A DNA stretch of 41,886 nt, taken from positions 1 to 41,886 of IMG/VR virus record IMGVR_UViG_2529292907_000015; one strand, given 5' to 3'. Source of the DNA: a virus (taxonomy: Duplodnaviria; Heunggongvirae; Uroviricota; Caudoviricetes). The position numbers and the translations under genes are program-made. The notes under the pieces were generated by a model, which saw nothing but the letters and a program-made list of their open reading frames with translations, was not told the DNA's origin and did not search any database. Position 1 is the first letter of the stretch, and the number at the start of each line of letters is the position of its first letter. This document shows positions 27,841 through 41,886 of the stretch, in pieces.

Positions 27841-28337
27841 TGAGGATAGATGTGATGACTAAAAATATCCGTAATCTGGCACTGGCAACGATGTCGGGGT
27901 TTCGCCATAAAACCGTTGATGTGCCTGAATGGGAAGGGGCAACGGTTGTGTTACGGGAACCTTCTGCAGAAGCCTGGTTGCGCTGGCAGGAGATCGTTAA
28001 AGCCAGGGAAGATGATACATCGCCATCTGTTGCAGAGCGTGCCCGCCGAAATCTGGAGGCGGACGTTGAACTGTTCATTGATGTTCTGTGTGATACCGGG
28101 CTGCAACCCGTATTTTCAGAGGGTGATCGTGAACAGGTGATTGCCGTGTATGGTCCGGTGCATGCCCGGCTTCTTCGCCAGTCTCTGGAACTGATCAGTG
28201 ATGCCGGAGAGGTTAAAAAAAGTAGCGCTTCCGGGGATGCGTTTTCTGATGATGCTGGCGCTCAGGATGGGGCGCACATTGTCAGAGTTACGCCGGGAAA
28301 TGTCCGCATCAGAAATCATGATGTGGGCAGAATTTGA
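27840..28337 (+). CDS. G: tail assembly chaperone G
   Basis: ATG 27840 is coupled to the V stop; an alternative ATG at 27855 has a GAGGA SD. A7 slippery run at 28215-28221. The overlapping downstream ORF is in the +1 frame. Confidence 0.7.
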   Translation: MRIDVMTKNIRNLALATMSGFRHKTVDVPEWEGATVVLREPSAEAWLRWQEIVKAREDDTSPSVAERARRNLEADVELFIDVLCDTGLQPVFSEGDREQVIAVYGPVHARLLRQSLELISDAGEVKKSSASGDAFSDDAGAQDGAHIVRVTPGNVRIRNHDVGRI

Positions 28338-28968: not shown

Positions 28969-31900
28969 ATGAGTGTGGCGACATTACGTGAACTGATTAT
29001 TAAAATCTCGGCAAACTCCCGGTCATTCCAGTCAGAGATCGCCCGGGCTTCGCGTATGGGGCAGGATTACTACCGCACCATGCAGAACGGAGGTCGACAG
29101 TCTGCTGCTGCATCCCGTGAAATGCGGCGTGCACTGGCAGAAGTGACGGATCAGATAAATACAGCTAAATCTTCGGCACTGAATATGGCGGGGGCATTTG
29201 CCGGGGCTTTTGCTACCGGTCATCTTATTTCTCTCGCCGATGAGTGGAATTCAGTAAATGCCCGTCTGAAGCAGGCCTCACAGTCCAGTGATGATTTTCA
29301 GGCATCACAGCGTGAATTAATGGCGATCAGCCAGAGAACGGGGACGGCGTTTTCTGATAACGCCAGCCTTTTTGCCCGTTCTGCAGCTTCCATGCGGGAG
29401 TATGGTTACAGTTCTGAGGAGGTACTGAAAGTCACCGAGGCGATCTCCACGGGCCTGAAATTATCCGGTGCCAGTACAGCAGAAGCCAGTTCAGTGATCA
29501 CGCAGTTCAGTCAGGCACTGGCGCAGGGAGTGCTGCGCGGTGAAGAGTTTAACTCGGTGAATGAGAACGGCGATCGTGTTATTCGTGCGCTGGCTGCGGG
29601 AATGGGGGTTGCCCGTAAGGATCTGAAGGCCATGGCGGATAACGGAAAGTTGACCGCCGATAAGGTTGTTCCTGCACTGATTAGTCAGCTTGGGGCATTA
29701 CGTGATGAATATGCGGCAATGCCTGATACGGTTTCATCCTCTGCAACCAAAGTTGAAAACGCCTTTATGGCCTGGGTTGGTGGTGCGAACGAGGCAAGCG
29801 GAGTGACAAAGACACTCACCGGGGTGTTGAATGGTGTTGCAGACAATATTGATACCGTGGCTACTGCAGCTGGCGCACTGGTTGCCGTCGGGGTAGCCCG
29901 ATATTTTGGCAATATGGCGTCGTCTGCTGGATCTGCAACTGCCGGATTAATTACTGCAGCCAGAAACGAAGTGGTTCTTGCTGAAGCGCAACTTCGGGGG
30001 ACACAGATAGCAACCGCCAGGGCGCGTGCGGCGGTTTATCGTGCGCAACAGGCGGTTGTTGCTGCTCGCGGTACCGAAAGGCAGGCCGCAGCAGAAGCGA
30101 AGCTGACAGCTGCCCAGGCGTCACTTACCCGTAATATTGCGGCCAGAACAGCGGCACAGACAACGCTGAATACTGTCACGTCAGTGGGGAGTCGTCTGTT
30201 AAGTGGTGCGCTGGGGCTGGTTGGTGGTGTGCCGGGACTCGTCATGCTGGGGGCGACGGCCTGGTACGCGATGTATCAGAATCAGGAGCAGGCCAGAGAA
30301 TCTGCACGCCAGTATGCCGCAACAATCGACGAAATTCGCCAGAAAACGTCGGCAATGTCGCTTCCTGAAGCGTCAGATAATGAGGAAAAGACGCGGCAGG
30401 CACTTGATGAGCAAAACAGGTTAATTGACGAGCAGAAAAGTAAGATTAAATCCTTACAGGAAAAAATTGCTGGCTATCAGTATGTGCTGGCAAACCCGGG
30501 CTGGACAACCGATAACGGTTTTATGATTAACCACATGACGTCGGTAAAAACTGTCACAGAAGGGCTTGCAGAAGCAACAAATCAACTGGCAGTTGAACAG
30601 TCCCGTCTCACACAAATGCAGGGCAAAGCGCAATCCATTCAGGATGTGCTTGCCGGGCTGGAGGAGCGACGGGTGGCGTTGATCCGTCAACAGGCAGCGG
30701 AACAAAACAAAGCGTATCAGTCCCTGTTGATCATGAATGGGCAGCATACCGAGTTTAATCGCCTTCTCGGGCTCGGTAATGAATTACTTCAGCAGCGACA
30801 GGGGCTGGTGAATGTACCGTTACGGCTACCACAGGCAACCCTGGATGATAAACAGCAGACCGCACTGAATAACAGCAAGCGCGAACTGGCTCTGTCCCGC
30901 CTGAAGGGGGAAGCGCGTGAGCGTGCCCGACTGGGCTATGCTGCGGATGATCTCGGCTTTGTGGGAGAGGCGTATCAGACAGCCAGACAGAATTATATCA
31001 ATAACTCACTGGATGCCTGGCGAAATAACCAGGCAAATAAACCGCATAAAAAACCGAAGCGGAAAAAACAGAGGATATTTATAAACGGCTGATTAAACAG
31101 CAAAAAGAACAGATAGCACTGGCAGGGCAGAATACTGAACTGGCTAAGATGAAATATCAGGTCAGTCAGGGCGAATTATCAACCCTGTCAGAAGCGCAGA
31201 AAAAAACGCTTTTGCAGAATGCAGCACTCATCGACCAGAAAAAGATTCGTGAGCAGCTTGCTGCGTATGAGAGCAGTCTGGCGGACAGTAATGCCAGTGC
31301 CCGGGCATCTGACGAAGCGCAGTTGCTGGGATATGGTGAAGGCTCACGGATGCGTGAACGACTCCAGGAAATGTGGAGTATCCGGCAGACGTTTGAGCAG
31401 AAAAATAACGAGCTGCTGAGACAGTATCAGGCCGGAGAAATTGAAGAAGCCCTGTGGAAACAGGAGAAAGAACTGAATAAAAAATATCTGGAAGAGCGTC
31501 TCAGCGATCAGCAGAATTATTATGCAAAGGCCGATGCTTTACGTAATAACTGGAATGCCGGACTCCAGGAGGGACTGACCAACTGGGCAGACAGTGCCAC
31601 CGATTATGCTTCACAGGCGGCAGATGCTGTCGTTTCCACGATGGACGGGCTGGTATCAAATATTTCCGATGCACTGGCCGGGAATGTTGTGGACTGGAGG
31701 AACTGGGGGAGTTCAGTTCTCCGGGAAGTTTCAAAAATTCTGATGAATGCAGCCATTGTTAACGGACTGAAATCACTCTCCGGTGCCGGAGGGTGGCTTG
31801 GTACGGTCGGCGGATGGATTTCGGGGGCAGTGGCAAACGCAAAAGGTGGTGTTTACACATCGGCAAATCTGAGTGCTTACAGTAACACTATTGTGGATAC

Positions 31901-32195
31901 ACCGACGTATTTTGCTTTTGCGAAAGGTGCCGGGTTGATGGGCGAGGCCGGGCCTGAAGCAATCATGCCACTGACACGGGCAGCGGACGGCTCTCTTGGG
32001 GTCAGGGCCATTGGAAATGTGAATGGTGGCGGTGGATTTGTTTATTCTCCCGTGTATCACATCAGCATTCAGAATCAAGGGAGCAATGGCGAGATAGATG
32101 CGCGCTCAGCCAGGGGACTGGTGGATCTGATCGACAGCAGGGTTGTGTCAATTATGCAGTCATCGCGTCGGGATGGAGGATTGTACAGTGCCTGA
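28969..32195 (+). CDS. H: tail tape measure protein, split into two reading frames near an A6 run
   Basis: ORF 28969..31092 (707 aa) has tape-measure-like N-terminal and coiled-coil regions. The next frame opens at 31050 and continues to 32195 with a Gly-rich C-terminal region. Inserting one A at 31048-31053 gives one continuous ORF. Confidence 0.75.
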
Positions 32196-33231: not shown

Positions 33232-33975
33232 ATGACAGAGACAGAATCAGTGATTCTGGCGCACGTCCGGCGATGTGCGCCAGCGGAGTCGTGCGGCTTC
33301 GTGGTGAGAACGCCGGAAGGGGAAAGATATTTTCCCTGCGTGAATATCTCCGGTGAGCCGGAGGATTATTTCCGGATGGCTCCGGAGGACTGGCTGCAGG
33401 CCAAAATGCAGGGTGAGATTGTGGCGCTGGTCCACAGTCACCCCGGTGGTCTGCCCTGGCTGAGTGAGGCTGACCGGCGGCTGCAGGTGCAGAGTGATTT
33501 GCCGTGGTGGCTGGTCTGCCGGGGGGCGATTCACAAGTTCCGCTGTGTGCCACATCTTACCGGGCGGCGCTTTGAGCACGGGGTGACGGACTGTTACACG
33601 CTGTTCCGGGATGCATACCATCTGGCGGGAATTGAGATGCCGGATTTTCATCGCGGGGATGACTGGTGGCGTAACGGTCAGAATCTCTATCTGGATAATC
33701 TGGAGGCCACGGGGCTGTATCAGGTGCCGTTGTCATCAGCACAACCGGGCGATGTGCTGTTGTGCTGTTTTGGTTCATCGGTGCCGAATCATGCCGCCAT
33801 TTACTGTGGTGACGGCGAGCTGCTGCACCATATTCCTGAACAACTGAGCAAACGAGAGAGGTATACCGACAAATGGCAGCGACGCACACACTCCCTCTGG
33901 CGTCACCGGGCATGGCACGCATCTGCCTTTACGGGGATTTACAACGATTTGGCCGCCGCATCGACCTTCGTGTAA
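33232..33975 (+). CDS. K: tail assembly protein K (Mov34/JAMM plus NlpC/P60-like)
   Basis: ATG 33232, inside the longer 33157..33975 ORF. HSHP motif present. Position is between L and I. Confidence 0.75.
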   Translation: MTETESVILAHVRRCAPAESCGFVVRTPEGERYFPCVNISGEPEDYFRMAPEDWLQAKMQGEIVALVHSHPGGLPWLSEADRRLQVQSDLPWWLVCRGAIHKFRCVPHLTGRRFEHGVTDCYTLFRDAYHLAGIEMPDFHRGDDWWRNGQNLYLDNLEATGLYQVPLSSAQPGDVLLCCFGSSVPNHAAIYCGDGELLHHIPEQLSKRERYTDKWQRRTHSLWRHRAWHASAFTGIYNDLAAASTFV

Positions 33976-34519
33976 AACGGGGGCTGAAGCCATCCGGGCG
34001 CTGTCCACACAGGTCCCGGCGTTTCGTCAGAAACTGAATGACGGCTGGTATCAGGTGCGCATTGCCGGGCGTGATGCAGGCGAAAATGAATTATCTGCCC
34101 GTCTTAATGAACCGCTGGCAAATGGTGCCGTGATCCACATCGTTCCGCGTCTGGCGGGTGCCAAAAGTGGCGGTGTGTTTCAGGCGGTGCTGGGTGCGGC
34201 GCTGATTGCGGTGGCATGGTGGAACCCTGTTGGCTGGCTGGGGGCCGCGGCTGTATCTGGTATGTATGCAGCAGGGGCCAGTATGATCCTGGGTGGTGTG
34301 GCGCAGATGCTGGCACCGAAAGCCAGGACGCCCACGGCAGCCAGTACAGATAACGGCAAACAGAACACCTATTTCTCGTCACTGGATAACATGGTTGCCC
34401 AGGGCAATGTTCTGCCTGTTCTGTACGGGGAAATGCGCGTGGGGTCACGTGTTGTTTCTCAGGAGATCAGCACGGCAGACGAAGGGGACGGTGGTCAGGT
34501 TGTGGTGATTGGTCGCTGA
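33873..34519 (+). CDS. I: tail assembly protein I, frame-disrupted at an A4 run
   Basis: N-terminal 34 codons (MAATHTLPLASPGMARICLYGDLQRFGRRIDLRVK) are in frame 0 from ATG 33873. The rest (TGAEAIRAL...GGQVVVIGR) is in frame 2. The junction is at AAAA 33974-33977, and one extra A gives a continuous lambda-I-like protein. Confidence 0.7.
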
Positions 34520-34579: not shown

Positions 34580-37500
34580 ATGGGTAAAGGCAGCAGTAAG
34601 GGGCATACCCCGCGCGAAGCGAAGGACAACCTGAAGTCCACGCAGTTGCTGAGTGTGATCGATGCTATTAGCGAAGGGCCGATTGAAGGTCCGGTGGATG
34701 GATTAAAAAGCGTGCTGCTGAACAGTACGCCGGTGCTGGACAGTGAGGGGAATACCAATATCTCCGGTGTCACGGTGGTGTTCCGGGCCGGTGAGCAGGA
34801 GCAGACACCGCCGGAGGGTTTTGAATCCTCCGGTTCCGAGACGGTGCTGGGTACGGAAGTGAAATATGACACGCCGATCACCCGGACCATCACGTCGGCA
34901 AACATTGACCGTCTGCGCTTTACCTTCGGTGTGCAGGCACTGGTGGAAACCACCTCAAAGGGTGACCGGAATCCGTCAGAAGTCCGCCTGCTGGTTCAGA
35001 TACAACGTAACGGTGGCTGGGTGACGGAAAAAGACATCACCATTAAGGGCAAAACCACGTCGCAGTATCTGGCCTCGGTGGTGGTGGATAACCTGCCGCC
35101 GCGCCCGTTTAATATCCGGATGCGCAGGATGACGCCGGACAGCACCACAGACCAGCTGCAGAACAAAACGCTCTGGTCGTCATACACCGAAATCATCGAT
35201 GTGAAACAGTGCTACCCGAACACGGCACTGGTCGGCGTGCAGGTGGATTCGGAACAGTTCGGCAGCCAGCAGGTGAGCCGTAATTATCATCTGCGCGGGC
35301 GTATTCTGCAGGTGCCGTCGAATTATAACCCGCAGACGCGGCAATACAGCGGTATCTGGGACGGAACGTTTAAACCGGCATACAGCAACAACATGGCCTG
35401 GTGTCTGTGGGATATGCTGACCCATCCGCGCTACGGCATGGGGAAACGTCTTGGTGCGGCGGATGTGGATAAATGGGCGCTGTATGTCATCGGCCAGAAT
35501 TGCGACCAGTCGGTGCCGGATGGCTTTGGTGGCACGGAGCCGCGTATTACCTGTAATGCGTACCTGACCACGCAGCGCAAGGCGTGGGATGTGCTCAGTG
35601 ATTTCTGCTCGGCGATGCGCTGTATGCCGGTATGGAACGGGCAGACGCTGACGTTTGTGCAGGACCGGCCATCGGATAAGGTGTGGACCTATAACCGCAG
35701 TAATGTGGTGATGCCGGATGATGGCGCGCCGTTCCGCTACAGCTTCAGCGCCCTGAAAGACCGCCATAATGCCGTTGAGGTGAACTGGATTGACCCGAAC
35801 AACGGCTGGGAGACGGCGACAGAGCTTGTGGAGGATACGCAGGCCATTGCCCGTTACGGTCGTAACGTCACGAAGATGGATGCTTTTGGCTGTACCAGCC
35901 GGGGGCAGGCACACCGCGCCGGGCTGTGGCTGATTAAAACAGAACTGCTGGAAACGCAGACCGTGGACTTCAGCGTGGGCGCAGAAGGGCTTCGCCATGT
36001 GCCGGGCGATGTCATTGAAATCTGTGATGATGACTATGCCGGTATCAGCACCGGCGGGCGCGTGCTGGCGGTAAACAGCCAGACCCGGACGCTGACGCTC
36101 GACCGTGAAATCACGCTGCCATCCTCCGGCACCACGCTGATAAGCCTGGTTGACGGACAGGGGAATCCGGTCAGCGTGGAGGTCCAGTCCGTCACCGACG
36201 GCGTGAAGGTGAAAGTGAGCCGTGTTCCTGACGGCGTTGCCGAATACAGCGTGTGGGGGCTGAAGCTGCCGACGCTGCGCCAGCGCCTGTTCCGCTGCGT
36301 GAGTATCCGTGAGAACGATGACGGCACGTATGCCATCACCGCCGTGCAGCATGTACCGGAAAAAGAAGCCATCGTGGATAACGGGGCGCACTTTGACGGC
36401 GACCAGAGCGGCACGGTGAATGGTGTCACGCCGCCAGCGGTGCAGCACCTGACTGCCGAAGTCACCGCAGACAGCGGGGAGTATCAGGTACTGGCCCGCT
36501 GGGACACGCCGAAGGTGGTGAAGGGCGTGAGCTTCCTGCTTCGCCTGACCGTGGCAGCGGATGACGGCAGTGAGCGGCTGGTCAGCACGGCCAGGACGAC
36601 GGAAACCACATACCGCTTCACGCAACTGGCGCTGGGAAACTACAGGCTGACAGTCCGGGCGGCAAATGCCTGGGGGCAGCAGGGCGATCCGGCATCGGTA
36701 TCGTTCCGGATTGCCGCACCGGCAGCGCCGTCGCGGATTGAGCTGACGCCGGGCTATTTTCAGATAACCGCCACGCCGTATCTTGCCGTTTATGATCCGA
36801 CGGTACAGTTTGAGTTCTGGTTCTCAGAAAAGCGGATTGCGGATATCAGGCAGGTTGAAACCGCAGCCCGCTATCTTGGCTCGGCGCTGTACTGGATAGC
36901 TGCCAGTATCAATATCAAGCCGGGCCATGATTATTATTTTTATATCCGCAGTGTGAATACTGTTGGCAAATCGGCATTCGTGGAGGCTGTCGGTCGGGCG
37001 AGCGATGATGCGGAAGGTTACCTGGATTTTTTCAAAGGAGAAATCGGGAAAACACATCTGGCCCAGGAGCTGTGGACGCAGATTGATAACGGTCAGCTTG
37101 CGCCGGACCTGGCTGAAATCAGGACGTCCATTACGAATGTCAGCAATGAAATCACGCAGACCGTCAATAAAAAACTGGAAAATCAGAGTGCGGCAATCCA
37201 GCAGATACAGAAAGTTCAGGTTGATACAAATAATAACCTGAACAGCATGTGGGCCGTGAAACTGCAGCAGATGCAGGACGGACGCCTTTATATTGCGGGT
37301 ATCGGTGCCGGTATTGAGAATACGCCAGCAGGAATGCAGAGTCAGGTGCTGCTGGCGGCAGACAGGATTGCGATGATTAATCCTGCGAATGGCAACACAA
37401 AGCCGATGTTTGTTGGTCAGGGCGATCAGATATTTATGAATGAAGTGTTCCTGAAATATCTGACGGCTCCCACCATTACCAGCGGCGGTAATCCTCCGGC

Positions 37501-38059
37501 ATTTTCCCTGACACCGGACGGGCGGCTGACGGCGAAAAATGCCGATATCAGCGGTAACGTGAATGCGAACTCCGGGACGCTCAACAACGTCACGATTAAC
37601 GAGAACTGTCGGGTTCTGGGAAAATTGTCCGCGAACCAGATTGAAGGCGATCTCGTTAAAACAGTGGGCAAAGCTTTCCCCCGGGACTCCCGTGCACCGG
37701 AGCGGTGGCCATCAGGAACCATTACCGTCAGGGTTTATGACGATCAGCCGTTTGACCGGCAGATTGTTATTCCGGCGGTGGCATTCAGCGGCGCTAAACA
37801 TGAGAAAGAGCATACTGATATTTACTCCTCATGCCGTCTGATAGTGCGGAAAAACGGTGCTGAAATTTATAACCGTACCGCGCTGGATAATACGCTGATT
37901 TACAGTGGTGTTATTGATATGCCTGCCGGTCACGGTCACATGACACTGGAGTTTTCGGTGTCAGCATGGCTGGTAAATAACTGGTATCCCACAGCAAGTA
38001 TCAGCGATTTGCTGGTTGTGGTGATGAAGAAAGCCACTGCAGGCATCACGATTAGCTGA
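34580..38059 (+). CDS. J: tail tip / host-specificity protein J
   Basis: ATG 34580 ([20 protein letters not shown]...), inside the longer 34535..38059 ORF. N-terminal two-thirds closely resemble lambda J as recalled; the C-terminal part appears divergent. Confidence 0.9.
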
Positions 38060-38781: not shown

Positions 38782-38790
38782 GGGGGGGGG
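38782..38790. repeat. G9 homopolymer immediately upstream of the side tail fibre start codon
   Basis: GGGGGGGGG then AAT then ATG (38794). The tract overlaps the SD position. Confidence 0.9.
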
Positions 38791-41358: not shown

Positions 41359-41886
41359 GGAGCGGAGCCTGGCATACAACAGATTGATCATGACCCCGTT
41401 CCCTATACTGCCACACCAGAAGATACAGCCAAAACTGGCCAGCGCGTCTGGCAGGAACTACAAAGTGGCAAATGGAGCGAAATCGCCCCGTTCACCGTCA
41501 CGCCCGAACTTATCGCAGCGGCAAAAGATGCCAAAAAGATGGAAATCGAGGCGTGGCGCCCAGAACAGGAAGCGCAGCCGTTCACGTTCGAATGGAACGG
41601 TCGCACCTGGAATGCTGACCCTGACTCACTGGCCCGACTCTATCCGGTAGTAATGGCGGCGAAATCCGATACGGCACGAACCACCCTTGCGTGGGGCGAC
41701 GCTGATAATCAACAGGTGAAACTGTCGATGCAGGAACTTGAAGAACTGGCGGCAGCAATGGCGCAGGCACAGGTCGATCGCAATGACGAGATTTATCAGC
41801 GTCAGCGGGAGATGAAGCAAGAGCTGAATAACCTGGAGGATTTGCATTCAATCAGGAAACTGGTCGTTAGCTCAGAAAAACCTTGA
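41359..41886 (+). pseudogene. second tail-fibre-assembly-like gene, lacking a usable start (in-frame TGA after codon 9 of the only upstream ATG)
   Basis: The open frame encodes ...WNGRTWNADPDSLARLYPVVMAAKSD...ELEELAAAMAQAQ..., which parallels the Tfa at 40224. ATG 41329 is in frame but is followed by TGA at 41356-41358. Confidence 0.4.

Follow-up and report, generated by a model that had tools for sequence, protein, structure and literature searches.

Apparent split of a lambda gene I homolog in a draft-assembled lambdoid prophage: a probable homopolymer under-call

The gene I homolog of this lambdoid E. coli prophage is broken after codon 35 in the deposited sequence, and the frame-disrupted gene is most likely not a real biological feature. 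We assign a probability of roughly 85% to the explanation that the split is a homopolymer under-call, in which a run of five As (A5) was called as four (A4), and that the gene is intact in the cell. Under this explanation, gene I of the prophage would be a normal, intact homolog of lambda gpI, its open reading frame (ORF) would appear split after codon 35 only through the draft assembly, and the same under-calling would have shortened six other A/T runs and produced the apparent frameshifts in Q, G/GT, and H. Two observations argue for an artifact. The missing base belongs to a homopolymer, and independent assemblies of the same prophage lack the indel; in addition, length-dependent errors in the same direction are found at other homopolymers, noncoding ones included.

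Gene I as deposited and the restored protein

The window (the whole stretch of DNA analyzed, 41,886 nucleotides) has a standard lambdoid late region, with an HK97-type head module followed by G/T, H, M, L, K, I, J, lom, and stf. The features around gene I are the following:

33232..33975, + strand, gene K (Prok-JAB plus NlpC/P60 peptidase, 247 aa), intact
33873..34037, + strand, 5' fragment of gene I: 35 gpI codons, 19 out-of-frame codons, TGA
33974..33977, + strand, A4 run in gene I, the presumed missing-base site (A5 in all closest relatives)
33977..34519, + strand, rest of gene I (frame 2; 180 codons and a stop)
34580..38059, + strand, gene J (tail tip host-specificity protein, 1159 aa), intact

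No single uninterrupted frame exists for gene I in the window; it is split at 33974-33977, after codon 35. An earlier note on this DNA had described a lambda-I-like N terminus running from ATG 33873 to a stop at 34035-34037, and these coordinates hold. The ORF consists of 54 codons, of which the first 35 encode gpI residues (MAATHTLPLASPGMARICLYGDLQRFGRRIDLRVK), followed by 19 unrelated codons and TGA 34035-34037. The remainder of I had been placed in frame 2, with no start codon between 33848 and 34055. Frame 2 (...KTGAEAIRALSTQVPAFRQKLNDGWYQVRIAGRD...; from 33977, TGAEAIRALSTQVPAFRQKLNDGWYQVRIAGRD...) is indeed stop free between the stop at 33845-33847 and 34519, and its earliest ATG, GTG, or TTG is GTG 34055, from which an ORF of 154 aa extends. 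Genes K and I overlap by 103 nt, and the first two As of the 33974-33977 run complete the TAA stop of gene K, whose product is unchanged with A4 or A5.

Adding one A to 33974-33977 restores a single ORF, as the same note had proposed. The restored ORF is 215 aa long and identical to the intact gene I of UGEP01000005.1 (locus L010). Its product matches PF06805 (Lambda_tail_I) at 86 bits, above the Pfam gathering cutoff of 23.8 bits. The 5' fragment reaches 19.2 bits on residues 14-35, below the cutoff, and the frame-2 remainder read from 33977 reaches 53 bits on residues 1-62. As deposited, the two gene I fragments score 19.2 and 20.7 bits, and neither attains the PF06805 cutoff. Alignment to lambda I, a check that had been suggested, gave a full-length match of the restored protein to lambda gpI (PDB 8IYK chain I, 8iyk_I; E=1.5e-106; query 1-215 versus chain 1-223). 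Relatives are annotated with the same gene arrangement, with I between K and J and its start inside K. The lambda tail tip contains three copies of gpI, whose plug domain seals the tube; residues 101 onward are resolved and the N-terminal domain is unseen (PMC11101478). The frame break of gene I falls inside the N-terminal domain, the part that is unresolved in lambda gpI. Gene I is a lambda gpI homolog whose frame is interrupted at a run in which every close relative has one A more.

The same prophage in other assemblies

The exact gene J protein sequence was used as the query for finding the same prophage elsewhere. The window corresponds to about 99,675-141,560 of contig AIFW01000009.1 in the NCBI draft GCA_000249615.2; loci L005, L011, and L035, from the same draft, either reproduce part of the window exactly or continue it. 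In UGEP01000005.1 (GCA_900450015.1), the same prophage occupies the identical chromosomal position, its integrase beside the yccA side and its tail-fiber end beside hyaA. This copy, NSKM01000155.1, and at least five other assemblies are about 99.9% or more identical to the window. Positions 1-11020 of the window are 100% identical to UGEP01000005.1, and the adjoining chromosome (8.7 kb and 6.2 kb) differs from it by one mismatch and no indels. Compared with the near-identical copies, the window shows ~5 substitutions in 42 kb, one 8-nt difference in a pentanucleotide repeat, and seven one-base indels that are private to the window.

Several other features of this locus were observed. The prophage (ends at window 1-1020 and 41539-41886) sits between the yccA-side genes and the hyaABCDEF operon, with its integrase adjoining the Bax1-I/yccA gene, and the same site is occupied in many E. 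coli genomes by different lambdoid prophages with an identical integrase. UGEP01000005.1 has a ~1.3-kb insertion in the region of the major tail protein gene (L010 1408-2716; window ~27300), which is a genuine difference and probably an insertion sequence. In the same assembly, yccS (FUSC family; L024 18954-21020) is split into 510 + 229 aa, compared with ~720 aa in other assemblies; this split may be an error or a mutation in GCA_900450015.1, in which case the comparator is also imperfect.

Two repeat tracts were also seen. The pentanucleotide repeat, (GCCCA) x 27.4, is perfect and occupies window 12534-12670, inside a methyltransferase gene (ORFs 12114-12680 and 12505-13095). Its end differs by 8 nt from UGEP01000005.1, and several draft contigs start or end nearby. 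The methyltransferase halves are fused in some assemblies (303 aa or 288 aa) and split in others (190 + 130 aa), and the repeat looks like a phase-variable simple-sequence switch. A G9 run at window 38782-38790 lies directly upstream of the side tail fiber ATG (38794) and has the same length in UGEP01000005.1, with GGGGTG in its place in relatives at 96% identity. This run may be a tract of variable length within the ribosome-binding region.

Identity of the missing base

Relatives at 96-99% identity (phage Ayreon; E. coli tcmA_3, MS6192, and S1-INA-02-B) have, at the gene I site, GTGTGAAAAC, a G followed by A4. These alleles pointed to loss of the G in GTGT[G]AAAAC, a change that would turn the K stop from TGA into TAA. 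The closest alleles, however, read GTGTAAAAAC (A5) and come from four Logan assemblies (L006-L009) with flanks identical over 215 nt. Because the identical-flank alleles carry A5, the missing G was rejected and a run one A short was accepted. A5 is also found in two assemblies of the same prophage, and 10 assemblies encode an identical K protein, 9/10 of them with A5. These alleles make A5 the immediate ancestral form of this site.

Among the public sequences searched, the split is private to one assembly. Gene I is uninterrupted in loci L010, L012, L081-L086, and L088-L090. The earlier note had recognized that the same split in related intact prophages would speak against an error, and the A4 split was absent from all of the >50 related copies inspected. 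An exact match to a 78-nt probe across the site was found at none of 6,538 places in 5,426 complete E. coli genomes, and the best matches there were all 79 nt with one gap. A 28-nt A4 pattern had no exact counterpart in IMG/VR or among 241 million metagenome records, and the A5 pattern gave 34 IMG/VR matches. Among the loci fetched, A4 is restricted to those of GCA_000249615.2. Gene calls of a 154-aa ORF in the four Logan assemblies were considered as support for the split and rejected, as these loci carry A5; the short call is a choice of the gene caller owing to the 103-nt overlap with K.

Seven homopolymer contractions

The seven private one-base indels fall in the following runs, the first two being covered jointly by the third line:

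13101, T5>T4, after the methyltransferase gene
13102, T7>T6, after the methyltransferase gene
13097..13107, + strand, both T runs one shorter than in relatives (TTTTATTTTTT), after the methyltransferase gene
13654..13658, + strand, T6>T5 (T5 run in the window), extends ORF 13494-14003
15554..15560, + strand, A8>A7, antiterminator gene Q; A8 in six near-identical assemblies; truncates Q
28215..28221, + strand, A8>A7, end of tail chaperone gene G, inside the G-T slippery site
31048..31053, + strand, A7>A6, tape-measure gene H; splits H into 28969-31092 and 31149-32195
33974, A5>A4, gene I

All seven (7/7) are contractions of A/T runs with a true length of 5-8, and there are zero expansions (sign test p=0.016). 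The number of contracted runs rises with true length, from 0/~314 at length 4 to 2/116 at 5, 1/39 at 6, 2/11 at 7, and 2/7 at 8, which corresponds to rates of 0, 1.7, 2.6, 18, and 29%. One-base indels (7) outnumber substitutions (~5) in the window. Three of the seven contractions fall in trivial ORFs or away from annotated protein genes; the pattern is indifferent to coding status and shows no sign of selection. No further contractions were found in core genes of the ~15 kb of flanking chromosome, though only ~1.5 were expected there. Gene I had previously been described as the second tail gene with a one-A-short signature, and H, G/GT, and Q were suspected of sharing its error direction. Both statements are correct, and the first understates the extent: H, G, and Q plus three T runs are also short, and all of the contractions are private to one assembly.

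Two observations concern the ORFs created by these changes. The 169-aa ORF 13494-14003 exists only through T6>T5 at 13654, which joins upstream sequence to an ORF that measures 91 aa in all relatives. Intact H measures 1073 aa in L010 and L012, and exact-sequence lookups returned no record of the 707-aa H ORF or the 177-aa Q fragment of the window.

The contractions could instead be real slipped-strand mutations in a decaying prophage, perhaps in a transient mutator background, so that gene I, Q, G/GT, and H would be pseudogenes and no tails would be made. We consider this unlikely. Homopolymer slippage is the commonest natural route to a frameshift and is also length dependent, and genuine lesions do occur in related prophages, including an H nonsense change at 31107 (SRR29324797) and the ~1.3-kb insertion in UGEP01000005.1. 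Seven indels against about five substitutions are, however, far from a natural spectrum; all seven contractions run in one direction, three of them at sites outside annotated genes or in trivial ORFs; and the same rate over the whole genome would amount to hundreds of frameshifts. Were the lesions real, the prophage would have no tail and no late-gene antitermination, making it an ordinary cryptic prophage rather than a new mechanism.

Run-level re-assemblies

The aberrant products of the H and G contractions served as queries in exact-sequence lookups. A Logan contig of SRR094137 contains the 348-aa C-terminal H fragment, and one of SRR094138 contains the 160-aa G product. These contigs show 0 mismatches to the window over 4.1 and 2.7 kb, respectively, and the two re-assemblies share its A6 (H) and A7 (G) alleles. 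On account of the zero mismatches and the common A6/A7 alleles, these adjacent runs are very probably the raw data of GCA_000249615.2. Because both run-level re-assemblies reproduce the short H and G alleles, these alleles must prevail in the raw data and did not arise during assembly. The reproduction is equally expected with real mutations and counts in favor of slippage in the cell to that extent.

The same contigs also contain one-base contractions that are not in the deposited consensus (31063 A6>A5, 28871 A6>A5, and 27437 TT>T), indicating that the SRR094137/8 read sets are error prone at homopolymers and arguing against real mutations. In later (Illumina-era) runs, Logan contigs at the I site (L006-L009) carry A5 in 4/4 cases, and L078 (SRR29324797) has both other runs at full length, A8 in G and A7 in H. 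Given the extra contractions in the run-level contigs and the full-length runs in later ones, the data behind GCA_000249615.2 under-call homopolymers, always in one direction. SRR29324797 also yielded a 348-aa H fragment, which was considered as a recurrence of the same lesion and rejected. This run comes from a different strain in which G>T at window 31107 creates a stop in H, with the A7/A8 runs intact; the nonsense change is an example of true gene inactivation within this prophage family.

Homopolymer under-calling is a known behavior of flow-based platforms (454 or Ion Torrent type), and the error signature points to base-calling error on such a platform as the cause; the cellular DNA presumably carries A5. 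With good coverage, a consensus is seldom wrong at a run of only five, which counts against an under-call. Confidence in the under-call is limited by the rarity of A5 errors and by the dominance of the short alleles, and the assessment was made on assembled sequences.

The practical value of this result is in quality control. The apparent pseudogenes Q, G/GT, H, and I are no evidence that the prophage is defective, and homopolymer-linked frameshifts elsewhere in GCA_000249615.2 are also suspect. AIFW01000020.1 of this assembly (L095) contains another lambdoid tail module, whose gene I is intact and has the GTGTGAAAAC allele. Its gene J is present as three ORFs (93 + 55 + 1012 aa), with a -1/+1 indel pair ~147 nt apart. 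When this contig was compared for the error signature, the nearest comparator was only 97% identical, and the two J indels may be either errors or real changes.

Possible recoding or internal initiation

If A4 were real, gene I might still be expressed, either by a -1 tRNA-Lys P-site slip on GTA_AAA or by initiation at GTG 34055. A slip of one base back on the four As, before a rare CGG codon, recreates exactly V-K-T-G-A-E. The 154-aa product from GTG 34055 would lack the N-terminal domain and keep the elements observed in the virion (helices, plug, and beta-strands), and the lambda tail tip shows only gpI residues 101 onward (PMC11101478). The codons at the site, CGT GTA AAA CGG, nevertheless contain no X_XXY_YYZ slippery heptamer and permit only the four-A P-site slip. 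No stimulatory structure was found, the 83 nt downstream folding at -30.4 kcal/mol (z=-0.54 versus shuffles). The earlier note had named a functional noncanonical start in frame 2 as a finding that would overturn its reading; only the internal GTG was found, with no Shine-Dalgarno-like sequence upstream and no convincing ribosome-binding site. The split is shared by no relative; therefore, nothing could have selected for recoding, and the idea is relevant only if the A4 allele is real. We regard expression by either route as extremely improbable. A combined version, in which A4 and the contractions in Q, G, and H are all real, a burst of slippage silenced the prophage, and gene I leaks wild-type protein by a -1 slip, is very improbable.

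A genuine recoding site is present elsewhere in the tail module. The G-T junction in intact copies (L010 3627-3644; window 28206-28224) reads GTT AAA AAA AAG TAG, and its -1 frame continues into T (KKVALPGMRF...MMLALRMGRT...). This junction is an A_AAA_AAG programmed -1 frameshift site just before the G stop. The A7 run of the window puts T in the +1 frame and yields the aberrant 160-aa G product. The G-T site is the only true recoding element of the tail module, and it is corrupted as deposited.

Comparison with known systems

The restored protein is alike end to end with lambda gpI (PF06805; PDB 8IYK/8IYL/8XCG chain I), and the window shares with lambda the order L-K-I-J and a gene I start 103 nt inside K. 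It differs from lambda gpI in a central hydrophobic segment that is 8 residues shorter, and the ORF of the window, as deposited, is broken after codon 35.

Defective lambdoid E. coli prophages with frameshifted morphogenesis genes exist. The window resembles them in having tail genes broken by single-base changes in an otherwise complete prophage. In contrast to such prophages, its lesions are all homopolymer contractions, include noncoding runs, and outnumber substitutions, and a near-identical copy occupying the same place in the chromosome lacks them.

The -1 frameshift of the tail chaperone gene G/GT offers a second comparison. This genuine site lies 5.8 kb upstream of the gene I site and is also one A short in the window. 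Unlike G/GT, the gene I site has no slippery heptamer, stimulatory structure, or conserved split, and relatives use one frame.

The under-call reading agrees with artifacts of the 454/Ion Torrent type. Like those artifacts, the changes in the window are single-base contractions confined to A/T runs of at least 5; they are length dependent, in one direction, private to one assembly, and indifferent to coding, and the re-assembled runs show additional contractions. The attribution made here is drawn from the error signature.
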